Source: Anaerolineales bacterium (GTDB lineage: Bacteria > Chloroflexota > Anaerolineae > Anaerolineales > UBA11579). From it: a stretch of 64,000 nt of DNA. The translations under genes and the position numbers were made by a program. Position 1 is the first letter of the stretch, and each line of letters starts with the position of its first letter. This document shows positions 5,833-22,411 of this stretch, piece by piece. The stretch is taken from contig JAJTXV010000005.1 in NCBI GenBank assembly GCA_021463845.1, positions 67,718 to 131,717 on the forward strand, written 5' to 3'. The notes beneath the pieces are model-generated. The model was given only the letters and a program-made list of their open reading frames with translations, did not search any database and was not told the origin of the DNA.

Positions 5833-7385
5833 AGCCGCGCACTTTCTATTACTTACTTGCCATCATTTCAGTGCTGGGCGGCCTGGCGGTGTACGTAGCC
5901 ACCAGCCAGTGGGGCCCCGGGCTGTCTACCGACGGAGCCCGCTATCTCTCCACCGCCGAGAGCCTGGCGGCCGGCCGCGGCCTGCTGGATTATCTCGGCG
6001 AGCCGCTGGTCAATTGGCCGCCGCTGTACCCGGCCATCGTGGCCCTGCTGCACAAGCTCAGCGGCGTTGACGTAATGGTTATCGCCCAGGTCATCAATAC
6101 CCTCACCTGGTCGGCCATCATCGCCCTGAGCGGTGTGTTCTTTACCCGCGCCCTGCCCGGCAAGTACACTTTTGCTCTGTTTGCTACGCTGGTGGTCGCC
6201 AGCAGCCGCGCCCTGGTGGAAATGTCAGCCAACGCCTCGTCTGACCCGCTGTTCATGTTGTGCATGCTGCTGTGGCTGCTGGCGGCGCAACAGTATGCAG
6301 CCACACGCAGCCCGCGCTATTTCTGGCAGATGGCGCTGCTGGCCGCGGCCGGCTGCTTCCTGCGCTACGCCGGCTCCTCGCTGGTGATGGCGGGTGGGCT
6401 GGTGGTGCTGTGGGCCTGGCGCAGCGATTTGCGCCAGGCGGTGCTGCGCGCCATCGCGTACGGGGCGGTATCGGCCGGGCCGATCGGCCTGTGGGCCGTC
6501 TTCCACAACTATCGCCTGACCGGCATCCTACTCGGCACTCACCAACCTTCGTATCCGCCCGGCCTGTTCGTGGCCGCGGTCGAGAAAGTGGCCAGCTGGT
6601 TCGTGCCCGAGCGCGTCCTGCTGATCGTGCCGCCGCTGGCTCTGTTCGGCCTGCTGTTGGCCGCGCTGGCGCTGCGCAGCACGCGCCAGCGCTGGGCGGC
6701 CTGGCTGCAACGCGTGCTGGCGGCGCCGTTGTTGCCAGCAGCCGCCTTCACACTGGTGTACGGGGCCATGTTGATCTTCACGATCAGCTATTCGGAGCAC
6801 CGCGTACCCGGCAGCCAGCGCCTGCATGCCGTGCTGCTGCCCTGCCTGCTGGTACTGGGCTATACACTGTATGAGCAGTTTGGCCCGCGGTTGCAAGGCG
6901 CCTGGCGGACGCTGGCGCTGGGGGCGGCCGCGGTGTGGCTGCTGTTCCCGCTCTTCCGCACGGCGGACTATGTGCGTAGCTCACATGCCGAGGGCGATGT
7001 GAGCTACTACAACCTATACAACACTCGCGCCCTGCGCCAATCCGAGCTCACTGCACACCTCAGCACTTTCCCGTTCCAGCCGGATGACAAGGTCTACAGC
7101 AACAACGAAGGCGCGGCCTGGTTCCTGCTGCGCCGCCGCATCTATCGACTGCCGCGCTACGACGGTGAGACCCAGGCCAGCCTGCAAACTGCCCTGGCCG
7201 AATTCGACGGCTGGCCGGCTGTGGATGACACCGCCTGGCTAATATGGTTCAGTGATGCGCTGGATTACAAACGAGACGTACCCACCCCGGAGCAGATGCA
7301 GGACAATATTCCTGCCAGCACGATGCGTGTGCTGAGCAACTACCGGAGTGGGTACGGAGAGATCTACGTACTGGATGTAGAGTAG
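5829..7385 (+). CDS. polytopic membrane protein, ArnT/PMT (GT39/GT83)-like glycosyltransferase
   Basis: ATG at 5829 overlaps the recD2 stop. There are more than 10 predicted TM helices, an N-terminal loop LSTDGARYLSTAESLAAGRG as in 4-amino-arabinose/mannosyl-transferase families, and a soluble C-terminal domain. Confidence 0.55.
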   Translation: MKPRTFYYLLAIISVLGGLAVYVATSQWGPGLSTDGARYLSTAESLAAGRGLLDYLGEPLVNWPPLYPAIVALLHKLSGVDVMVIAQVINTLTWSAIIALSGVFFTRALPGKYTFALFATLVVASSRALVEMSANASSDPLFMLCMLLWLLAAQQYAATRSPRYFWQMALLAAAGCFLRYAGSSLVMAGGLVVLWAWRSDLRQAVLRAIAYGAVSAGPIGLWAVFHNYRLTGILLGTHQPSYPPGLFVAAVEKVASWFVPERVLLIVPPLALFGLLLAALALRSTRQRWAAWLQRVLAAPLLPAAAFTLVYGAMLIFTISYSEHRVPGSQRLHAVLLPCLLVLGYTLYEQFGPRLQGAWRTLALGAAAVWLLFPLFRTADYVRSSHAEGDVSYYNLYNTRALRQSELTAHLSTFPFQPDDKVYSNNEGAAWFLLRRRIYRLPRYDGETQASLQTALAEFDGWPAVDDTAWLIWFSDALDYKRDVPTPEQMQDNIPASTMRVLSNYRSGYGEIYVLDVE

Positions 7386-13429: not shown

Positions 13430-14623
13430 ATGCGCACCTTATCCTGGTGGCAACACCTCCTGCTGGCCGTGCTGGCTACCCTAGCGCTCTTTGCTATTTT
13501 CACTGTCTTTCAAATGCGCCTGCCCGACCCGGAGGCTTTCAGCCCGCAGGTGTTCTTCGTGGCGGCGGCCCTGCTGCTGGCTGGCACAGTGCGCATGGGG
13601 CCGCACCCGCTGCGCTGGGTGTACTGGCTGATCACTGGCTTGTGCATCTTCATCTTTCTGGACGAGATCGCCTACGGCGTGGAGCTGCTGGACTTCCAGC
13701 CCATCTACATTGAGCGTTACAACTTCTATATCCGCGATCTTCACAGCTCGATCGGCTCCCTGAGCGGCGTGCTGCAGGAGTGGCTGCCAGAGGCCGGGTG
13801 GAACCCGGCGCTGTTCGCTATCCTGATGCGCATCAGCGCCGGCGTGGGTCTGGGCCTGCTGGCGGTGTGGGCGCTGGCCCGCCACGGGCTGCAGGCCGCC
13901 AAGGAGGCGGCCTGGCAGGCGCGCATCCTGCGCCTGACGCTGTGGGCCAGCCTGCTCACCAGCCTCATCACGCTCGGCTATCTATTATGGCTGCCGGCTG
14001 ACCCCAAGAATGCGTTCCTGTTCGGCTTCTCACCGGCGCGCCTGACGGTAGTGGCCGGGCTAGCGCTGGCGGCAGCCCTGGCCGCCTGGCTTCTGCAGCA
14101 GCCAGCACGCTGGCCCGCCTTGCAAGCCCGCATCAGCGCTGTGCTGGGGCGGTATGCCCTGCTCGCCAGCCTGCTGCTGGCGGCGGTGGCGCTGGGCGGG
14201 TTGTATTACCAGATCGACGCCAGCTTCCATTTCCTGCCGGATGATCTGGTGCGCCTGCAGCGTATGATGCCGCCCGTGTTGTGGGCCATGGCGCAAGCGC
14301 TATTGCTCTGGCTGGCCGTCCAATTGTGGACCGGCCGCCTGCGCACGCCGGTCATTACGATGCTGCGCGATACGCAGCAGGCCTTTCACCAGCACCCTGC
14401 TTTCGTCTACGTGGCCTTTGGCCTGCTGGTGATCTTTGTAGCCCAGCTGATCGACCAGAACCTGCTCCCGCTGGACGATATGCTCTACACGCCCAACTAC
14501 CGCATCCAGCATTGGGCTGGTTGGACCGAGGAGACGCTGGAGATGATCGGCGCGTTCTTGTTCCTGATCGCGGCCTTCCTGGTGCCAGGCAAGCCTGCCC
14601 AACAAAAAAGCAGCCGCACGTAG
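13430..14623 (+). CDS. polytopic membrane protein, unknown function
   Basis: 397 aa with about 10 hydrophobic helices. I recognise no motif. Confidence 0.55.
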   Translation: MRTLSWWQHLLLAVLATLALFAIFTVFQMRLPDPEAFSPQVFFVAAALLLAGTVRMGPHPLRWVYWLITGLCIFIFLDEIAYGVELLDFQPIYIERYNFYIRDLHSSIGSLSGVLQEWLPEAGWNPALFAILMRISAGVGLGLLAVWALARHGLQAAKEAAWQARILRLTLWASLLTSLITLGYLLWLPADPKNAFLFGFSPARLTVVAGLALAAALAAWLLQQPARWPALQARISAVLGRYALLASLLLAAVALGGLYYQIDASFHFLPDDLVRLQRMMPPVLWAMAQALLLWLAVQLWTGRLRTPVITMLRDTQQAFHQHPAFVYVAFGLLVIFVAQLIDQNLLPLDDMLYTPNYRIQHWAGWTEETLEMIGAFLFLIAAFLVPGKPAQQKSSRT

Positions 14624-14637
14624 CGGCTGCTTTTTTT
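14604..14637. terminator. bidirectional Rho-independent terminator between convergent genes
   Basis: aaaaaa-gcagccgc(14610-14617)-acgta-gcggctgc(14623-14630)-ttttttt. It serves the + gene ending at 14623 and the minus-strand Ubl operon ending at 14653. Confidence 0.75.
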
Positions 14638-14652
14638 ATTCTCCGAAATCCA

Positions 14653-15789
14653 CTAGTCTTTCAGTTTGATACGCGGCCGCTTGCCGAAGGGCTTGCGGCG
14701 CGGTTTCCCGGCGCCCGCCTTCGGATTGGCCGCCCCCTGCCCCTGGCGCACCGCGCCAACGATCAGCGGCACGGCCACCAGCAGCGCCAGCACTCCCACG
14801 ATGGCAGCGAACTGCGGCCTGGCCGCAGGCTGCTCAACCTCGGGCACCAACCCACCCGGATTATAGCGTTCACCACTTTCCGCCACCGGTTCCCCGCCGC
14901 CGGCAGGCGCTAACGTCACACTGAGCGAGCGATTCACGCCGTCACGCAGCGCAGCGGGCGAAATGTAGCTGAGTTGGTATTCACTCTGCAGCGCATACGA
15001 GTAGCTCTCGTACAGCCGGGTCAGGCTGTCTTCATCTTCGACGTAGCCATACTGCCCGCCGGATTGCGCCGCCAAGTCTTGCAGGCCGGGCTCGTCAATA
15101 CCGCTCATGCGGTCGCCGCCCGGCGTGCCCAGCCCCACCGTGGAGATCGAGGCGCCTTCGTTCTGCACGCGGGCCACCACATCCGGCGCGGCCCACTGGC
15201 TGGAGTTATCCAGGCCATCGGTCAGCACGATGATGGCCTTGCGGCCCTGTACGCCTTCCAGTTCATCCAGCGCGGTCATCAGGGCATTGAACATGGCGGT
15301 GTCATCATCGCCCCGCAGACTGTCGATGGCGCTATGCAGCGCGGCCTGATCAGAGGTCAGCCCCTGCACCACCTGCACCTGCGTGTTGAACGAGATCAAG
15401 CCGCTCTGATCCTGCGGGCGCATGCGCTCCACGAATTGGTGCGCGGCCGCCTTGGCCGAATCCAGCTTGCCGTCCGGGTTCATGCTGCCGGAGACATCCA
15501 TCACCAGCATGGTGGTCAGCGCTTCCACTTCGCCAACCCCCTGGATCTGGTCGAGAGCGATAGGCTGGCCGTTCTCCATGATGACAAAGCGGCTCGGGTT
15601 GACCGGATAGGGGTTTCCGTCCGCGTCCGTCACCGAAACGAAGAACGTGACCCGCGGGAACTGCGAAGTGTCCACCTGGGTGATGCGTACTTGCAGGCCC
15701 TCCTCCTGTGCCAGCGGCGCGAAGGCCAGGCCGGACAGCAGATTGAGCGCCAGAATGAGTCCAAGCGTTAAACGAGTGAGTTTGTGCAT
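14653..15789 (-). CDS. secreted/membrane-anchored von Willebrand factor A (vWA) domain protein
   Basis: N-terminal signal peptide (LTLGLILALNLLSGLAFA). The MIDAS motif is MDVSGSM, followed by LTDGLDN. A C-terminal TM helix FAAIVGVLALLVAVPLIVGAV precedes the basic tail ...KRPRIKLKD. Confidence 0.85.
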   Translation of the reverse strand: MHKLTRLTLGLILALNLLSGLAFAPLAQEEGLQVRITQVDTSQFPRVTFFVSVTDADGNPYPVNPSRFVIMENGQPIALDQIQGVGEVEALTTMLVMDVSGSMNPDGKLDSAKAAAHQFVERMRPQDQSGLISFNTQVQVVQGLTSDQAALHSAIDSLRGDDDTAMFNALMTALDELEGVQGRKAIIVLTDGLDNSSQWAAPDVVARVQNEGASISTVGLGTPGGDRMSGIDEPGLQDLAAQSGGQYGYVEDEDSLTRLYESYSYALQSEYQLSYISPAALRDGVNRSLSVTLAPAGGGEPVAESGERYNPGGLVPEVEQPAARPQFAAIVGVLALLVAVPLIVGAVRQGQGAANPKAGAGKPRRKPFGKRPRIKLKD

Positions 15790-15791
15790 GC

Positions 15792-16649
15792 TTACCTCTT
15801 CTCGTGATAGACAAGTTGAGTGTTACCGACGCGGATAGCCTGCTCATCCAGCAAGCGGGCCTGCTCCACCTTGCGCCCGTTGATGAAAGTGCCCTTCTGG
15901 CTCATGTCGCGAATATTCATGTGGGTGTCGCCGCCGCTCAGCATGGCGTGCTGCGGGTCAATGTCAGGGTCAGGCAGCACAATGTCTGCCTTCAGGGCGC
16001 TGCTGCCCACATAGGCGGTAGGCCCATTGGCATGGATGAATTTGTCGAGCACGAACTCAGTGCCTTTGAGCTTGCCGCTCACCACTTCCAGCCAAGCCTT
16101 CGAAAGCAGCAGTACCACCAGCGCGATCAGCGCACCGATGGCGGCGCCCAGCAGGCCCAGGCCGATGGCCTTGCCAATGAGTGCATCCGCCAGGCGCGCC
16201 CGCGCCAGCTCCAGCAGGGCGCCGCCTACTGCGCCGCCCAGCAAGCCGCCCAGGGCGGGCTTCCACATCTGCGCCCCGCTGCTGAAACCCAGCCCGGCGC
16301 CGATGAAGCCGCCGAACACCGCCCAGCCCAGCGCGCGAGTCCAGGCTTCGCCGCCCAGGGTTTGGAAGGCGGCCTCCGCCAGCGGCAGGCCAATGGCGCC
16401 GCCCACCAGGCCGAACAGGCCGTTGGTCAGGCCGGCCCGCACCGCATAACCTGGGCTGCGCAGGGCGGCGCCTTCGCTCATGCCGATCAGGCTGCCGATG
16501 CAGAAGCCGATCAGCCCACCCACCACGACTTCACTGAGATAGACGTTCTGGGTGAACGACAGGCCCAGCACATTGCTGACCTGCCAGCCGATCAACCCGC
16601 CGATCGCCCCCAGCAGGGTGTAGTAATACAAACGTGTCATCCGGTTCAT
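15792..16649 (-). CDS. glycine-zipper membrane protein with C-terminal FHA domain
   Basis: The N-terminal ~190 aa are Gly-rich TM segments (GxxxG repeats). The C-terminal FHA domain reads YVGSSALKADIVLPDPDIDPQHAMLS...GTFINGRKV...IRVGNTQLV. The start overlaps the JAB stop (ATGA). Confidence 0.8.
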   Translation of the reverse strand: MNRMTRLYYYTLLGAIGGLIGWQVSNVLGLSFTQNVYLSEVVVGGLIGFCIGSLIGMSEGAALRSPGYAVRAGLTNGLFGLVGGAIGLPLAEAAFQTLGGEAWTRALGWAVFGGFIGAGLGFSSGAQMWKPALGGLLGGAVGGALLELARARLADALIGKAIGLGLLGAAIGALIALVVLLLSKAWLEVVSGKLKGTEFVLDKFIHANGPTAYVGSSALKADIVLPDPDIDPQHAMLSGGDTHMNIRDMSQKGTFINGRKVEQARLLDEQAIRVGNTQLVYHEKR

Positions 16650-17614
16650 TGTTTGTTCTCCGTTTGGGGATCGTGCGCAACCGGAGGCTGCGCGGGAGTT
16701 TTCGTCTCAGCCTGAGACTTTGTCTCAGCTTTGGGATGTGCGGGAGGCTTGACCTCAACGCGGGGCTTTGACTCTGCCTGAGGCTTCGCCTCAGGCTTGC
16801 GGGCCGCGTCCGCCTGCGGCTTGCGAGCCGCGGGCGTAGCCGTCACGGTTTTCACCTCGACCGGGCGCGTATCCGAGATCTCTGCGCGGCTGGGCTGAGG
16901 CTTAGGGCTGGCCGGCGGCTGCGCCGCCGCTGCAGCCGGTTTTGGCTGCGGCTCAGGCCGCAAGTTAGCCCAGTCCACCACGCTGTCCATGCTGCTGGAA
17001 TGCAGCTCGTAGAAGCCGCTGTAGCGGCGCGGCGACAGCTCGCCATCCTTACGCATGAACAAGCCGGCCTGGCGGGTATGCGGCTCGACCACCAGCGCCA
17101 CCTGCCAGGGCTGCGGAAAGAAGTGATCGTGCAGCCAGGTGTCATAGCCTGAAAGAAAAATGCCCATGCGCGGGTGGGTGTGATACCAGCCCACCACGCA
17201 CTTGTTCTCATACTGCTCTTCGAGGGCTGAGAGCATCGCCACCTGGCTGTCATGTGTAAAGGTAAGGAAGGTGCTGCCTGAGCGCACTTGCTGCGCCGGC
17301 AGCAGAGCTTCCACCACCACGAACTCCTTGCCAGCCCGCCCATCCCGGCACCAGCGCCCCGCCAGCCAGCCGCCGACCTCGTTGTCCATGTCACTGGCGG
17401 CGTGCAGCGCGATGGTCTTGATCACGCTCTGCGTGAAGAAGACCGGCAGCGCCGGCTGGGCGCTGTCCTCGCCTGCCGCCAGCCAGCGTTGGGAGCGGCT
17501 CAGCGGCAGGCGGGCACGGCGCGGGGCGCCGAGCGGGTTTTGCAAACCCTGCGGCTTCTTGGAGGCGGAGGTGGATGTGCTCATGGCATTGGCCTTGCGC
17601 TGCCGGGTGGCCAT
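16646..17614 (-). CDS. JAMM/MPN+ metalloprotease (JAB deubiquitinase-like) with Pro/Lys/Ala-rich tail
   Basis: The Glu lies in NEVGGWLAG. GWYHTHPRMGIFLSGYD gives H-x-H-x7-S-x2-D, the complete JAMM motif. The C-terminal ~110 aa are low complexity. Confidence 0.9.
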   Translation of the reverse strand: MATRQRKANAMSTSTSASKKPQGLQNPLGAPRRARLPLSRSQRWLAAGEDSAQPALPVFFTQSVIKTIALHAASDMDNEVGGWLAGRWCRDGRAGKEFVVVEALLPAQQVRSGSTFLTFTHDSQVAMLSALEEQYENKCVVGWYHTHPRMGIFLSGYDTWLHDHFFPQPWQVALVVEPHTRQAGLFMRKDGELSPRRYSGFYELHSSSMDSVVDWANLRPEPQPKPAAAAAQPPASPKPQPSRAEISDTRPVEVKTVTATPAARKPQADAARKPEAKPQAESKPRVEVKPPAHPKAETKSQAETKTPAQPPVAHDPQTENKQ

Positions 17615-17648
17615 GTTGCGAATGCAACATGGCCACCCAAATCAGCAA

Positions 17649-17915
17649 TTACCCGGCGGTGACGTCAGCCGTGATCATCAGGCGGTCGTCGGCGGGGACA
17701 CCGGCGGCCTCCAGGGTCTCGTCTTCCTTCAGCTCGCGGCCCAGGGCCTTGCTGTCCAGACGGTAGCCCATCGGGCGGCCGTCAGGACCGGTGGTGGGCA
17801 GCTCCAGCGTGGTGGCCAGCTCCGGGATCAGTTCCTTCACTTCCACATCATTGGGCACCTCAGCGGTGCGGCTGCCCCCAGACGGCAAAACTACGGTCAC
17901 AGGAATGTCAGGCAT
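17649..17915 (-). CDS. free ubiquitin-like beta-grasp protein ending ...TADVTAG-stop
   Basis: 88 aa with an AAGGAG RBS upstream. The strand/helix pattern is beta-grasp-like (IPVTVVLPSGGSRTAEVPNDVEVKELIPELATTLELP...). It is a paralogue of the N-terminal domain of the adjacent E2 fusion, and its terminal residue is Gly. Confidence 0.8.
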   Translation of the reverse strand: MPDIPVTVVLPSGGSRTAEVPNDVEVKELIPELATTLELPTTGPDGRPMGYRLDSKALGRELKEDETLEAAGVPADDRLMITADVTAG

Positions 17916-17950
17916 GTCTTAATCTCCTTTGCGTCTAGCAAAAATTTGGA

Positions 17951-18802
17951 TTACTTCAACTTGATGCGCGGCTTCGGCTTCGCCGAGGCGGGCGTCTTCT
18001 TCAGATGCACACGCTCCGGGCGCAAAAGCTCACGCGTATCCACAGGGAAGAATTTGGGATTCTTTTTGCGGTAGCCGCGGCTCCAACGGGCCGCCTCGGC
18101 ATCCCAAGGGAAGGGCGGCTTGGTGGGGTCATCGTGAAAGTTCTTGTACTGCACCATCTCGCCGATCATCAGCACCAGGCGGTCCAGCGAACGGCTGGCG
18201 GTCCACCAGGCTGCATCCACACACACTGTGCCATTCAGATGGTTGATGTTGGGGTGCCACACCGGCGTCAGCCACTTCATGCCCGGCCAGCGCTGCGGAT
18301 ACTGGTTGTGCAGATAGATCTCCACCTGGTGCTTGTCTCCCAGCATGGGCTCGCCTTTGTGATTGACCGCGATCACGCCTTTGCACTTATAGGTGACGAT
18401 GTAGGTCTCGGGCGGCATTTTTGGATTGGCCGAGATGGCCTTGAACTCGATGAGATCGCTCTGCGCGGCCAGCTCCTGCATGCGCTGCAAGTCCGCCTTC
18501 AGACGGCGGATGCGCGGGCTCTCGCCCAGCTTGACCGCGCCGGCGGTGATGTCCGCCGTCAGGATCAGGCGGTCCTCGGCGGGCACTTCTGCGCTCGCCA
18601 GCGTCTCGGTTTCCTTCAGCTCGCGGCCCAGGGCCTTGCTGTCCAGCCGGTAGCCCATCGGGCGGCCGTCTGGCCCTACCGTGGGCAGGCCGAGCAGCGA
18701 GATCAGCTCCACCACCAGCTCACGTACCGGGGCATCATCAGGCAGCTCGGCTTTGCGAGCGCCGCCGTTTGGCAGGATGATGGTCAATTCGATATCAGCC
18801 AT
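17951..18802 (-). CDS. Ubl::E2 fusion (N-terminal ubiquitin-like domain + UBC-fold ubiquitin-conjugating enzyme)
   Basis: Residues 1-87 resemble the free Ubl and end TADITAG. The E2 core is YLHNQYPQRWPGMKWLTPVWHPNINHLNGTVCVD, i.e. the eukaryote-type HPN triad plus the catalytic Cys. A GAGGAG RBS lies upstream. Confidence 0.9.
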   Translation of the reverse strand: MADIELTIILPNGGARKAELPDDAPVRELVVELISLLGLPTVGPDGRPMGYRLDSKALGRELKETETLASAEVPAEDRLILTADITAGAVKLGESPRIRRLKADLQRMQELAAQSDLIEFKAISANPKMPPETYIVTYKCKGVIAVNHKGEPMLGDKHQVEIYLHNQYPQRWPGMKWLTPVWHPNINHLNGTVCVDAAWWTASRSLDRLVLMIGEMVQYKNFHDDPTKPPFPWDAEAARWSRGYRKKNPKFFPVDTRELLRPERVHLKKTPASAKPKPRIKLK

Positions 18803-18819
18803 ACAATGCTCTCCTCAAC

Positions 18820-19683
18820 TCAATTCTGGAAGGCGTGCGGCACCTGGCACACGCCCGTGATCTCCCAGCAGTCTGCGTGGTGCCAGGTCTTGCAGACCTT
18901 GCAGATCTTGACGCCGCGCGGGTCGCGCTTGGTCACCGGCTCCAGGCAGTAGGGGCACATGTGGCGTTCCTGCGCGCTGAGCGTGATGCCGCTGCCGCGG
19001 GCCGCACGCTTGCGAGCCGGCCGCGCCGAGCGGATCTTGCGCGTGGTTGGCGTAGGCGTAAAGAACTTGGATATCCCAGCCCGAGCACGTTGCGCGAACG
19101 AAGGGCGCGCTGCACTGCGCGGTTGGCCGCGGCTCGGCTGCCGGCTGCGCGCCCGTGGCGCAGCCGGCGCAGAGCCAACGCTGACGCGCGGCCGGGGCGC
19201 AATGTTGACTTCTACGTCTACCTCCCCGCGCGGTTCCACCATCACGGTGCGGCGGCGCGGCGCCCAGGCCGCCTGGCCCGCGCCCACCGCCAGGCCCATG
19301 ACCAGCAGTTGAATGGCGGCATCCAGCGGTGTGGCGATGGCATAGCTGCGCAGCAGGTTCAGGCCCACGAAGCCCAGGGTCAGCGGGCTGAGCACCGCCA
19401 GGGCGATCAGCCCGGCGAAGGCGGCCGTAGCCGCCCGCAGGGCCGGGCTGCGCCCGGCCAGCACCCGGCGGCTCATGAAGCTGGCCGCCAGGCCGATGCC
19501 GATAATGACAACGAACTTGAGCAGGAACGGCGAGAAGCTGGTGGGCAGCACGAACAGCAGGGTCAGGCCCAGCCCCACCAGGGTGGCAAACAACACACAC
19601 AGGGTGATACGCCCAAGCGCGCTGTCTACGAACTTGCTTTCATCTCCCAGTAAAAATCGTCTCATCGCTACCGCTTGCATCAT
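18820..19683 (-). CDS. four-TM membrane protein with C-terminal RING/PHD-like zinc finger (putative E3)
   Basis: Four hydrophobic helices are followed by an Arg/Pro-rich linker. The finger is CPYC-x14-CKVC-x3-HH-x2-C-x6-C-x3-H (eight-ligand cross-brace pattern), matching my recollection of the TM-linked prokaryotic RING family (Pfam Prok-RING_1). Confidence 0.8.
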   Translation of the reverse strand: MMQAVAMRRFLLGDESKFVDSALGRITLCVLFATLVGLGLTLLFVLPTSFSPFLLKFVVIIGIGLAASFMSRRVLAGRSPALRAATAAFAGLIALAVLSPLTLGFVGLNLLRSYAIATPLDAAIQLLVMGLAVGAGQAAWAPRRRTVMVEPRGEVDVEVNIAPRPRVSVGSAPAAPRARSRQPSRGQPRSAARPSFAQRARAGISKFFTPTPTTRKIRSARPARKRAARGSGITLSAQERHMCPYCLEPVTKRDPRGVKICKVCKTWHHADCWEITGVCQVPHAFQN

Positions 19684-19686
19684 GGC

Positions 19687-21306
19687 TTAGTCGATCAGGT
19701 GCACCCGGCCGCTGGCCTGTGCTTCGCCCTGCACCGCCTCGCCCAGGCGCACGCGCGGGGCATGCAGGCCAGGCACGGCCTCATCAAAATCGTTGAAGTG
19801 CAGCGCGGTGGGCAAGTCACCGCTCAATTCATAGAAACGAAATTCTGCGCCATTTGTAGCGCGCACAATATGCAGCGGCGGCACCCCAACGCTGGCCAGC
19901 GTGCGCTCCAGGAAGTCTTCGCGGCCGGTGATGGTATGGGTCAGGTCAACCTCGCGCATCTCGCCGCAGCTGGGGCAGTGTCCTGCTTCGAAGCTCACGT
20001 CTGACAGCGGCTTGAGCACATGCTCCACCGTGTTGCAGGCGGCGCAATTGAGCGCCAGCACCAGCTCCTGATCCAGCTCCAGCACCGTGTCCGCCCCCAG
20101 GTCGCCGCGGGCGATCTCAAGCAGCTCGGCCAGCGTGTTGGCCTCGGCGCGCAGCGGCAGCTCGGTCACATCGCCATAGATCCAGTGGCTCTCGCACTCC
20201 GCATCCGGCAGGTAGGCGGTGGTGTGCATGAAATTGGTGTAGCCGTTGTAGTGCAACACCTTGCCCGGCTCGACCGGCATGTTGTGGATCAGCTTGAGCG
20301 CCTCTTGCGATTGCATCGCGCCGATGATCGAAGCGATCGTCGGCGTGGTGGGCACCTTGCCCAGCAGAATATTCTGGCGCGCCAGCAGCGGGCAGGAGTA
20401 GCGCATGGCCAGGTCACGGCGGGCCTGCTCGGTCAGCGTGCATTCAAAGCACGCGCCTTCGCCAGGCACAAAGACGCGCGCCAGGCCGAGCAGTTCTTGA
20501 ATTGCGCCATCGACCCACGGCTTGTTCATCCAATGCGCAAAGCGGTTGACCGCCAAGCGCGCCTCGCGGTTGTCCAGACAGCCCACGATGACGTCCATGC
20601 GGCGGAACACGCCCAGGCCAATATCGGTGGTGACGTCGCCGTGCAGGTACTGCACGCGCACATCCGGGTTGATCTCCACTGCCCGCGCCGCGGCCAACTG
20701 GGCTTTCTCGCGGCCGCGATCTTTCTCGCGGAACAGAATCGAGCGGCTCAGGTTGGCCGCTTCCACTTTGTCAAAGTCCACAATGTACAGATTGCCGATG
20801 CCCATCAGGGTCAGATTCTTGATGACCTCGTTGCCCAGCGCCCCGGCTCCCACCACCATCACACGGGCGTTCTGCACCTTCTCGCGCTCCCACCAACTGA
20901 TGAACTCGAAGGTGCCCAAACGGTCAGACTTGAGGTTGGGGATGTGCAGCGGTTTCTCTTTGGCCACCGGCAGCCGCTTGGGGCCGTCGGCCGCTTTGCG
21001 CTTCTGCGCCCACTTGGCGGGCGCGGGCGGCGCAACCTCGGCCGCCAGTTGGCGCGCCTTGAGCATGCGCGCCGAGCTCAGCTCATTTACGAACCAGCCC
21101 ACGCCCTGCTGCGCATCCAGCAGCCCGGCTTCGGAAAGGATCTTGAGCGCCTCGCGCAGCGAGGAGCGCCCGACCCCCAGCTCCTTGATGAGGTCACGCT
21201 CAGCTGGCAGCTGGCTGCCGGCCGGGTATTGGCCCTGCAGCAGGCCGGAGGCCAGGCGGCCGGCGACAAGTTCGGGGACGGATTTGCGCGGGATGGAATT
21301 GGGCAT
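19687..21306 (-). CDS. GntR-type winged-HTH fused to ThiF/E1-like ubiquitin-activating (adenylating) enzyme
   Basis: The N-terminal segment LPAERDLIKELGVGRSSLREALKILSEAGLLDAQQGVGWFV is a GntR HTH. The E1 core includes VMVVGAGALGNEV, VDFDKVEAANLSRSILF and LDNREARL. There are CxxC pairs (CFEC, CAAC, CPSC), a candidate catalytic Cys in RYSCPLL, and a possible C-terminal UFD-like domain. Confidence 0.9.
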   Translation of the reverse strand: MPNSIPRKSVPELVAGRLASGLLQGQYPAGSQLPAERDLIKELGVGRSSLREALKILSEAGLLDAQQGVGWFVNELSSARMLKARQLAAEVAPPAPAKWAQKRKAADGPKRLPVAKEKPLHIPNLKSDRLGTFEFISWWEREKVQNARVMVVGAGALGNEVIKNLTLMGIGNLYIVDFDKVEAANLSRSILFREKDRGREKAQLAAARAVEINPDVRVQYLHGDVTTDIGLGVFRRMDVIVGCLDNREARLAVNRFAHWMNKPWVDGAIQELLGLARVFVPGEGACFECTLTEQARRDLAMRYSCPLLARQNILLGKVPTTPTIASIIGAMQSQEALKLIHNMPVEPGKVLHYNGYTNFMHTTAYLPDAECESHWIYGDVTELPLRAEANTLAELLEIARGDLGADTVLELDQELVLALNCAACNTVEHVLKPLSDVSFEAGHCPSCGEMREVDLTHTITGREDFLERTLASVGVPPLHIVRATNGAEFRFYELSGDLPTALHFNDFDEAVPGLHAPRVRLGEAVQGEAQASGRVHLID

Positions 21307-21334
21307 GGTGTGGGCGGCTCTTTATTGTGGTTTG

Positions 21335-21347
21335 TTGGTCAGACCAA
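21335..21347. promoter_or_regulatory. perfect palindrome TTGGTC-A-GACCAA, candidate GntR/FadR-type operator
   Basis: It lies 29-41 nt upstream of the E1-fusion start codon, in the divergent intergenic region. It matches the generic GntR operator form (GT-Nx-AC) and the TGGTC.GACC core known for FadR. Confidence 0.45.
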
Positions 21348-21460
21348 TATACCACGCCGCCCTATCAAGTCAATACAGCTTAGCTTTCAATTCTGTCAGC
21401 CACTAGGCTGAGAGGAATTGGCAGACCGCGAACGTTACGCTATTCACAAACGGAGGGACT

Positions 21461-22411
21461 ATGAAGATCGTTCTGGCAGGCGGCAGCGGACAGGTCGGCA
21501 CCTTGCTGGCCCGGCACTACCACGCCAAAGGCGACGAGGTGACGGTACTGACCCGCCGCCCCACCACGATGCCCTGGCGCACCGCACACTGGGACGCCGA
21601 GACCCTCGGTCCCTGGGCCCAGGAGCTGGAGGGCGCCGACGCAGTCTTCGGCCTGGCCGGCCGCAGCGTGAACTGCCGCTACACGCCCAAGAACAAACGC
21701 CTCATCATGGATTCGCGGGTAGATTCCACCAGCGTCCTCGGCCAGGCGATCGCGCAAGCCACCCGCGCGCCGCGCGTGTGGATCCAGGCGAGCACTGCCA
21801 CCATTTATGGCCACAGCTACAACCGTCCCAACAATGAAGACGGCGCCCTAGGCGGCGAGGAGCCGGACGCGCCGCATGCCTGGCGCTTCAGCATTGATGT
21901 CGCCAAAGCCTGGGAGCAGGCCGCCGACGCGGTCGAAACGCCGCGCACCCGCAAGGTCATCACGCGCACCGCCCTGACCCTCAGCCCGGACCGCGGCGGC
22001 ATCTTCGACACCCTGCTGAGCCTGGTGCGCCGCGGCCTGGGCGGCCGGGTGGCCAGCGGCCGCCAGATGGTCTCGTGGCTGCACGACGCTGACTACATCG
22101 CCGCGGTGGATTGGCTGATAGCCAACCAACACATGAGCGGCATCGTCAACCTGGCCGCGCCCAACCCGCTGCCGATGGACGATTTCATGCGCACCCTGCG
22201 CCGCGCCTGGGGCATGCCCATCGGCCTGCCCTCCACCCGCTGGATGCTGGAGATCGCATCATTCTTGATGCAAACAGAAACGGAGCTGATCCTCAAGAGC
22301 CGCTATGTGCTGCCCGGCCGCCTGCTGGCCGAAGGCTTTGAGTTCCAGTATCCGCTGTGGCCTATTGCGGCTGAGGACTTATGCACGCGCTGGCGAGCAA
22401 GGTCTATGTAA
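21461..22411 (+). CDS. SDR-fold epimerase family protein (YfcH/TIGR01777-like, DUF1731 C-terminus)
   Basis: MKIVLAGGSGQVGTLLARH is a Rossmann GxxGxxG motif. The protein is 316 aa, with a GGAGGG RBS upstream. Confidence 0.8.
   Translation: MKIVLAGGSGQVGTLLARHYHAKGDEVTVLTRRPTTMPWRTAHWDAETLGPWAQELEGADAVFGLAGRSVNCRYTPKNKRLIMDSRVDSTSVLGQAIAQATRAPRVWIQASTATIYGHSYNRPNNEDGALGGEEPDAPHAWRFSIDVAKAWEQAADAVETPRTRKVITRTALTLSPDRGGIFDTLLSLVRRGLGGRVASGRQMVSWLHDADYIAAVDWLIANQHMSGIVNLAAPNPLPMDDFMRTLRRAWGMPIGLPSTRWMLEIASFLMQTETELILKSRYVLPGRLLAEGFEFQYPLWPIAAEDLCTRWRARSM

Follow-up and report, generated by a model that had tools for sequence, protein, structure and literature searches.

A GntR-type DNA-binding head on an E1-like enzyme and a conserved site at its own promoter suggest autoregulation of a ubiquitin-like operon in Anaerolineae

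Why should an enzyme that activates a ubiquitin-like (Ubl) modifier carry a DNA-binding domain, and which DNA might that domain bind? The question is raised by a 64,000-nucleotide stretch of the genome of an Anaerolineales bacterium (contig JAJTXV010000005.1, positions 67,718 to 131,717), referred to here as the window. The first gene of a seven-gene operon on its minus strand (19687..21306; 539 amino acids, ATG start) encodes a GntR-type winged helix-turn-helix (wHTH) fused to an E1-like enzyme, as read from the list of open reading frames (ORFs), from Pfam matches to both GntR and ThiF, and from more than 120 homologous protein clusters. An initial annotation of the window had proposed that this E1 regulates its own operon from a palindrome just upstream or, alternatively, that it is tethered to DNA. 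Our comparison of related loci argues for the former. The protein is probably a trigger enzyme with two functions, E1 activity and, by negative autoregulation, repression of the seven-gene operon that encodes it, and the remainder of the operon that it would presumably control extends over 14653..19683.

Is the head of this protein a DNA-binding domain at all? The ORF does carry, ahead of its ThiF core, the GntR helix-turn-helix that had been proposed for its N-terminus. Indeed, Pfam places GntR (PF00392) at residues 14-73 with E = 3.9e-17 and 62.1 bits against a cut-off of 27, covering profile positions 5-64 of 64. In an AlphaFold2 model of the fusion (mean predicted local distance difference test score, pLDDT, of 74.9) the wHTH and a beta-rich C-terminal domain are confident, the E1 core adopts a Rossmann fold, and residues 92-136 of the linker are disordered. 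The wHTH spans residues 10-73 (21088..21279, minus strand) and shows three helices and a two-strand wing (H10-23, H36-43, H47-59, E63-66 and E70-73; pLDDT 83-88), with the recognition helix at residues 47-59. Its best sequence matches in the PDB are an Rv0494/FadR chimera (3e-12), the GntR-family regulator 6az6 and PdhR (1.4e-8), followed by FadR and NanR. Across 59 diverse family members wHTH residues E36, R37, R47, R51, E52, V69, G70 and W71 are invariant, residues of DNA-contact type among them, and mean column identity is 0.74 in the wHTH and 0.71 in the C-terminal domain. Compared with the five closest orthologues, the wHTH codons contain 19-27 synonymous and 4-8 non-synonymous changes. 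Judged by these codons, the wHTH is a translated part of the protein under purifying selection; the synonymous excess and the invariant residues speak against a true start codon downstream of the helix-turn-helix, a doubt that the initial annotation had itself raised. Pfam finds no FCD domain (PF07729) in the fusion protein, the C-terminal part of which is ThiF/E1. Because FCD is the defining domain of the FadR subfamily, the protein is not a member of that subfamily; its domain matches make it a GntR protein in which the partner domain is new.

This architecture is widely conserved within one bacterial class. Among the 5.8 billion proteins searched, more than 120 clusters match at 63-100% identity. 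Both Pfam domains are present in nearly all of them, within ~540-570 amino acids, and those clusters that bear organism names all come from Anaerolineae, including the cultured Pelolinea submarina. One exception is a 472-residue match with ThiF only, which lies on a short 1.8-kb contig and is probably truncated. A further scan, with one genome per species, found 145 relatives, and 80 of these loci (63-95% identity) were analysed. These are species-level Anaerolineae genomes, and every one of them carries the fusion, so that orthologous operons, where the initial annotation had suggested looking, keep it in both samples. We also scanned 1.84 billion representatives clustered at 50% identity with HMMER and examined the best 150. 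At this level the fusion is a single cluster, with one full-length representative and two fragments covering the GntR region. The other E1 relatives among the best 150 are mostly 380-420 amino acids long and align from residue 113-135 on, and no helix-turn-helix was found in the seven longer ones that were scanned, one of which has a C-terminal JAB domain and six of which have ThiF only (in one of the six with a weak Shikimate_DH overlap). The initial annotation knew of no such fusion for any E1-like enzyme. Likewise, no helix-turn-helix or GntR domain on an E1 is described in the literature that we searched on GntR plus ThiF/E1 fusions, prokaryotic RING operons and YukD operons, an earlier mention being possible because the 2011 RING-finger and 2009 E1 surveys lay outside this scope. 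Automated protein names from JGI already label the GntR + ThiF architecture, however, and the fusion is therefore best called unstudied rather than unseen.

Head and enzyme are joined by a linker (residues 76-135; 20902..21081, minus strand) that is basic, as had been noted, with 13 K/R against 5 D/E, and that has pLDDT values below 50 at residues 92-117 and 128-136. Its conservation profile divides it in two. The first half is variable and disordered; the second (residues ~106-135, 20902-20990; GPKRLPVAKEKPLHIPNLK..., GPKRLPVAKEKPLHIPNLKSDRLGTFEFISWWE) is nearly invariant and modelled with low confidence. Since this second half is also present at the N-terminus of E1 relatives without a GntR domain, it is part of the enzyme rather than a spacer.

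Is the other half of the protein still an enzyme? The ThiF/E1 adenylation domain (residues 135-371; 20194..20904, minus strand) matches Pfam PF00899 with E = 7e-54, and the C-terminal beta-rich E1 domain (residues ~376-505; 19792..20181, minus strand), modelled with a pLDDT of ~90, may be the dock for an E2. The E1 motifs comprise a GAGALGN nucleotide loop (153-159), D177, an NLSRS sequence with the arginine finger (185-189), an LDNREAR magnesium site (244-250) and two CxxC pairs, C286/C289 and C444/C447, the former (C286-x2-C289) being a zinc motif. Single-domain E1s have their catalytic cysteine in a crossover loop that corresponds to residues 298-320. In the fusion this loop is flexible and of low model confidence, follows C286-x2-C289 and holds C305 (codon 20392-20394) in an invariant RYSCPLLAR block; C305 is thus a candidate catalytic cysteine, assigned solely by position. 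All of these hallmarks (GAGALGN, D177, NLSRS, LDNREAR, both CxxC pairs and C305) are invariant in the 59 sequences. Because every catalytic motif is invariant, the E1 half is probably a working enzyme, which on these motifs would be catalytically complete and of the active single-domain type. Foldseek finds ThiF nearest to the core (TM-score 0.82), then UBA5, MoeB, UBA3 and MccB, and the nearest PDB sequence matches are UBA7, UBA1 and UBA5; MccB and PaaA, too, turn up as relatives of the core in these structure and sequence comparisons. Single-domain E1s of the ThiF/MoeB/UBA5 type act as homodimers, and by analogy the fusion E1 is probably homodimeric as well. An E1 homodimer would therefore present two wHTHs, much as the FCD dimer does in FadR-type regulators.

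Which DNA, then, might two such heads recognize? The initial annotation had pointed to a perfect 6-1-6 palindrome, TTGGTC-A-GACCAA (TTGGTC-T-GACCAA on the gene strand; TTGGTCAGACCAA), at 21335..21347, which is 29-41 nt upstream of the ATG at 21306. Its location and sequence stand, whereas the bare palindrome proved statistically ordinary and the conserved unit both larger and asymmetric. Perfect 6-1-6 palindromes number 38 in the window, where length alone would predict ~16, and 49 of 100 shuffles contain the 11-mer core when one mismatch is allowed; on these counts a test of chance gives the bare palindrome no weight as evidence. The excess of 6-1-6 palindromes may simply reflect the 61% G+C content. 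An exact second copy of the core lies inside an ORF elsewhere in the host genome. Of the 38 palindromes in the window only one has the GGTNNNACC core, and it is the site at the E1 promoter. Here the core is embedded in an extended operator, a 29-bp inverted repeat (GTGGTTTGTTGGTC A GACCAATATACCAC; 21327..21355) with 14-nt arms that are 86% complementary and with four TGGT/ACCA half-sites. A position weight matrix (PWM) for this extended site scores 43 bits at the E1 promoter versus 12.3 bits for the next best site in the 2.33-Mb host genome.

Conservation across loci defines the unit more sharply. We aligned 200 nt upstream of the E1 start for the window and the 80 loci (81 promoters), anchoring the alignment on the core motif. 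On the gene strand TGGTC-T-GACCA occupies positions -5 to +5 with little or no variation, and positions +8 and +10 to +13 form a second box, A.ACCA, that is invariant and corresponds to the promoter-distal outer box of the window (21328-21333). The intergenic DNA around the site is essentially random, at 0-0.5 bit per position. The functional unit is therefore asymmetric, consisting of TGGTCTGACCA plus the invariant A.ACCA box 8 nt downstream, and the promoter-side mirror box TGGTAT is kept only partly (24-55 of the 81 loci). Family f39 has the site as a perfect 27-bp palindrome (TGGTATTCTGGTCAGACCAGAATACCA). In 80/80 cases the locus contains a single site above threshold, always upstream of the E1 gene, and the 927 kb scanned hold no others. 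A lack of the palindrome at orthologous loci had been named beforehand as an outcome that would speak against the proposal; instead the palindrome is present in all 80, at a constrained position. A wider regulon was not found either, there being a single extended-PWM site in the host genome and no extra sites within or beside the operon in the 80 loci.

This distribution bears directly on the idea of tethering. A wHTH that anchors the E1 to DNA could allow conjugation at the chromosome, for example the tagging of RNA polymerase or of DNA-bound proteins, with transcriptional control as a side effect or absent altogether, and the long, flexible, basic linker would let the enzyme reach around such an anchor. 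A single high-scoring site per genome, always at the promoter of the operon itself and located between its -10 hexamer and start codon, is instead the signature of autoregulation. For this reason we favor autoregulation over tethering, and the latter, which the initial annotation had offered as its alternative, now appears quite improbable.

The sequence of the site is also what one would expect for a GntR protein of this type. Operators of the FadR subfamily follow the rule TKGT-N3-ACMA, often with an extra, weaker half-site that lies 7-12 nt away from the centre (PMC4494728); the TGGT-CTG-ACCA core together with the ACCA box centred ~11 nt from the centre fits this rule exactly. Similarly, the E. 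coli PdhR box is AATTGGTnnnACCAATT (PMC7660256), which the window's ATTGGTCTGACCAA resembles in sharing the GGTnnnACC type. The palindrome is thus FadR-like, as it had been described, by both its TKGT-N3-ACMA and its PdhR-like GGT-N3-ACC pattern. As a conserved candidate operator it also has the general shape of GntR-family operators, Ny-GT-Nx-AC-Ny.

What would a protein bound at this site do to transcription? In the window a promoter scan finds one match in the region, a sigma70-like promoter (21346..21373, minus strand; 10 of 12 consensus positions) with a -35 of TTGACT (21373-21368), a 16-nt spacer and a TG-extended -10 of TATATT (21351-21346). Its -10 hexamer overlaps the core operator by 2 nt and is itself overlapped by the promoter-proximal outer box. 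A sigma70-like promoter matching 9-12 of 12 positions precedes the site in 74 of the 81 loci. The palindrome centre lies 5 nt after the last base of the -10 in nine loci, including the window, and there overlaps the hexamer and the predicted start. In 63 loci the distance is 15-17 nt, which puts the centre at ~+8 to +10 relative to the predicted start. The two position classes differ by about one helical turn. By these coordinates the position is typical of a repressor.

Some FadR-subfamily proteins, FadR included, activate certain promoters, and the sign of regulation is not readable from sequence alone, so that the wHTH-E1 might bind here as an activator or dual regulator. A protein located over the -10 and predicted start, or at ~+8 to +10, as it would be in all loci with a recognizable promoter, normally hinders RNA polymerase, however, and because the promoters match the sigma70 consensus well (9-12 of 12) an activator should be unnecessary. 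We regard activation as distinctly unlikely. Alternatively, the conserved sequence might act as RNA, in the form of a 5'-untranslated-region hairpin or a protein-binding leader that affects translation or stability. The motif would be transcribed in most loci, those with the centre 15-17 nt after the -10; it ends ~10 nt before the start codon, beside the Shine-Dalgarno region; and a strand-specific element would agree with the preference of both the central T and the downstream box for the gene strand. Against this, the -10 hexamer overlaps the left arm in the window's subclade, where a hairpin would therefore not be transcribed whole, and the fold is no better than that of shuffled sequence (z = -0.96). 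No Rfam match was found, the positions are invariant and show no covariation, the outer arms are unpaired in one third to two thirds of loci, and the same box and promoter layout precedes ordinary GntR/FCD genes. An RNA element is accordingly very improbable, and the sequence is better read as an operator in DNA.

Does the site follow the DNA-binding head? A natural control is available in five genomes of a sister family (f50) of Anaerolineae (G092, G191, G130, G163 and G049; loci L101-L105) whose E1 orthologues, at 50-58% identity, are without the GntR domain, their tblastn alignments starting at the equivalent of residue 112-123. The f50 operon (for example L103:3598-8067) contains the E1, a free Ubl, an unfused E2, a JAB gene, a gene of ~1 kb and a second JAB gene; RING, FHA and vWA were not detected in it by tblastn, and the E1 is not its first gene. 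At none of the five GntR-less loci was the E1-type operator motif found. Separately, ~60-130 nt upstream of the GntR-less E1 at L103 (G130:C1) there are two short tandem arrays, one resembling (GTGGTCTGTGGTCA)x2 and the other (TTCGTAA)x4.

A class sample of 201 genomes was then used to look for the box independently of the enzyme. A strict 19-nt pattern matched in 12 of the 201 genomes, once in each, compared to one match for the reversed-pattern control. Full-length GntR-E1 genes are present in seven of the genomes, and in six the pattern stands directly upstream; in the seventh the contig ends before the promoter. Three further matches lie upstream of standalone GntR + FCD regulators of 238-253 amino acids, on these genes' own promoters. 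Their wHTHs are 36-44% identical to that of the E1, and the layout is the same, with -35, -10, box and then ~20-50 nt to the start codon. Because standalone GntR/FCD regulators carry the same promoter-operator layout, the box is a GntR type of operator; on this comparison a local clade of FadR-type regulators uses it for autoregulation. Promoter, operator and wHTH appear to have passed to the E1 fusion together, as one block from such an autoregulated gene. The remaining three matches are intracoding in one case, intergenic and upstream of a TetR-like gene in another and upstream of an aldo-keto-reductase-like gene in the third. At L097:7039-7057 (G165:C22:10438-10456), the pattern sits between a TetR-family gene on the minus strand (ORF 6304-6996) and a 2-hydroxyacid-dehydrogenase-like gene on the plus strand (from 7043).

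These other users of the box suggest a different division of labor, in which a separate FadR/FCD-type GntR protein binds the box in trans and the wHTH of the E1 serves as a peptide or Ubl clamp like the RRE domains of MccB and PaaA. The N-terminal domains of MccB and PaaA, both related to the E1 core, are indeed winged-helix peptide clamps. Elsewhere in the class there are standalone FCD regulators preceded by the same box, and genome G106 combines one of these with a GntR-E1; in the complete genome G150, where no GntR-E1 was found at E <= 1e-60, the box stands upstream of an unrelated gene. In the host genome of the window, on the other hand, no FCD regulator has the box on its promoter, and the extended site occurs only once. 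A tblastn search with the N-terminal 120 residues of the E1 detected two other GntR proteins there, one that is HutC-like by sequence reading and one of the FCD type with a GTATAC palindrome upstream of its own gene; the E1-type box was not found with either paralogue, and the host genome would thus seem to have no other candidate binder. As to a clamp, the domain scores as GntR and has no PqqD/RRE-type match in Pfam, the weaker overlapping matches of its relatives being only to DNA-binding helix-turn-helix families (HTH_11), and the arginine and glutamate residues of its recognition helix and the wing glycine are invariant. Moreover, box and wHTH occur together in 80/80 loci and are both absent from the GntR-less orthologues. 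We consider binding in trans, with a clamp on the E1, unlikely.

How might autoregulation by the E1 operate? The E1 would occupy the place of the FCD effector and dimerisation domain of ordinary FadR-type regulators. The two wHTHs of an E1 dimer would bind the TGGTC-N-GACCA palindrome, with a second dimer or additional contacts using the flanking TGGTAT/ATACCA boxes, and binding would block RNA polymerase and so repress the E1-RING-Ubl::E2-Ubl-JAB-FHA-vWA operon. Such a block is expected because the site overlaps the -10 and predicted start in the window and lies ~8-10 nt downstream of the start in most relatives. We infer DNA binding and dimer geometry from the comparisons above, and the sign of regulation from the position of the site only. 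The proposal that the E1 is an autoregulator of its own operon is nevertheless well matched by the pattern of sites, which occur at the operon's own promoter in 80/80 loci, are unique in the genome and are missing where the E1 is GntR-less.

Several observations weigh against this reading. Homodimerisation of the E1 is inferred from its relatives. The 80 loci are related and the controls come from one family, and the comparison of 80/80 with 0/5 thus represents fewer independent events than is apparent. Read on the gene strand, 77 of 81 loci have T as the central base, and of the two outer boxes the downstream one does not vary, its upstream mirror being only 30-68% symmetric; this asymmetry of central T and downstream box is not predicted by a pure dimer-palindrome model and may reflect the overlap with the promoter or a more complex assembly. 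The exact E1-type operator (TGGTCAGACCACCATACCAC) also lies 98 nt upstream of the aldo-keto-reductase-like gene of G150 (L098:1001-1019; G150:C1:789127-789145). Because no GntR-E1 was found in that genome, other regulators can use the box, and this copy is presumably used by a FadR-type regulator other than GntR-E1. Finally, the sole metatranscriptome with the locus shows similar depth on either side of the promoter and gives no usable 5' end. In this bioreactor sample (run X18) contigs from a strain of 95-97% identity extend over most of the operon (14400-21800) at even depth, with a gap over the low-complexity tail of the JAB gene (~16660-17430). The operon may be expressed in situ, DNA carry-over being the alternative source of these contigs.

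What would the autoregulating E1 control? Downstream of its gene, all on the minus strand and assigned by Pfam, are genes for a Prok-RING protein (18820-19683), a YukD-Ubl::E2 fusion (17951-18802), a free YukD-Ubl (17649-17915), a JAB protein (16646-17614), an FHA protein (15792-16649) and a vWA protein (14653-15789). A single operon thereby contains a Ubl, an E1, a UBC-type E2, a RING-type finger and a JAB protease, with Pfam matches for all five, of which that to Prok-RING_1 is under its cut-off (22.1 bits versus 29.1). The gene order E1, RING, Ubl::E2, Ubl, JAB, FHA, vWA is kept in the 80 loci wherever the contig is long enough. PADLOC returns only generic profile matches, E1-E2 (CBASS Cap2-type) and JAB, to the ThiF and JAB cores, and none to the other five operon proteins. 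Upstream, the divergent neighbor is common to only 4 of the 80 loci, and the conserved site therefore belongs to the E1 operon; control of the divergent SDR-like gene (21461-22411) as a general role was ruled out on the same count. A second inverted repeat (CTGTCAGCC / GGCTGAGAG; 21393-21414), with 9-nt arms and a 4-nt gap, is located upstream of the -35. It may belong to the promoter of the SDR-like neighbor, and the two closest relatives (L002 and L003) share part of the repeat (CTGACAGAA).

Could the enzyme also sense the state of its own pathway? BirA is an adenylate-forming enzyme that modifies a protein lysine, has an N-terminal winged helix and acts at one operator, with its adenylate as co-repressor. 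By analogy with biotinyl-AMP in BirA, and speculatively, the binding of the E1 to DNA might change with its enzymatic state, be it loading with ATP, Ubl-adenylate or thioester, modification of itself, or recruitment to the RING, FHA or vWA proteins. It is conceivable, though rather doubtful, that the E1 is a BirA-like sensor that sits on the operator only in one catalytic state and leaves when it is engaged by the RING, FHA or vWA proteins or is modified by Ubl. The operator-bound state might be, for example, the form loaded with Ubl-adenylate or thioester when E2 or substrates are saturated or, conversely, the idle form. If so, the charging state of an activating enzyme would directly govern transcription of its Ubl cascade, the E1 would be the first known as a transcription factor, and a protein modifier would be the effector of a new GntR subfamily.

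Short of such sensing, the circuit is of interest for its economy. It consists of a single protein, a single 29-bp site and a single promoter, and these three are kept across a clade that includes the cultured Pelolinea submarina. If the E1 binds the operator, it would add a new class of enzyme to the trigger enzymes and a new type of effector domain to the GntR family. Bacterial ubiquitin-like conjugation systems are under active study, and the conditions of derepression would in that case provide a handle on the inducing signal and physiological role of this pathway, which belongs with the eukaryote-like, non-defence E1/E2/RING operons. The comparison of loci also shows a possible origin of the fusion, in which promoter, operator and wHTH were joined as a block to the first gene of a Ubl operon.

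How does this arrangement compare with known systems? The closest regulators are those of the FadR subfamily (PdhR, LldR, FadR and NanR), which share the type of wHTH, the GGT-N3-ACC operator core and the location of a site on the regulator's own promoter. In those proteins the FCD domain is all-helical, whereas here ~400 residues of E1 plus a C-terminal beta domain take its place, without the small-molecule pocket of the FCD type. The TGGTAT outer boxes of the window's operator recall NanR in particular, for which GGTATA repeats are occupied by three dimers (PMC8012715). The remainder of the operon has its counterparts in the prokaryotic E1/E2/RING/JAB operons (Burroughs, Iyer and Aravind 2011; Caldiarchaeum), which contain the same cascade components in one operon; the paper on the archaeal Caldiarchaeum system mentions no regulator fused to the E1 (PMC5654768). 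Transcription factors are encoded with bacterial Ubl and defence operons, for example CapW/BrxR and CapH + CapP with Bub operons, and PafBC with the Pup ligase (PMC11601603, PMC5656591). These are separate proteins of WYL or XRE type that respond to DNA damage, unlike the GntR-type head described here, which is fused to the E1 itself.

Two known groups come nearest to the fusion in principle. Among the described GntR subfamilies, MocR/GabR/PdxR (PMC4494728) likewise combine a GntR wHTH, a long linker and a large enzyme-fold domain used for dimerisation or sensing. In MocR the partner is a pyridoxal-phosphate aminotransferase fold that has largely lost catalysis, while here it is a ThiF/E1 fold with invariant catalytic motifs. 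Trigger enzymes, a concept exemplified by BirA, PutA, NadR and RbkR (PMC8249747, PMC5397151), unite an enzyme and the repressor of its own pathway in one polypeptide, as is predicted here; BirA, however, is a ligase resembling class II aminoacyl-tRNA synthetases with a vitamin as substrate, as opposed to a Rossmann-type E1 with a protein, the Ubl, as substrate. Both kinds are already known. What would be new, as judged from these comparisons, is a GntR regulator with an enzyme partner, as in MocR, that is equally a trigger enzyme, as in BirA.

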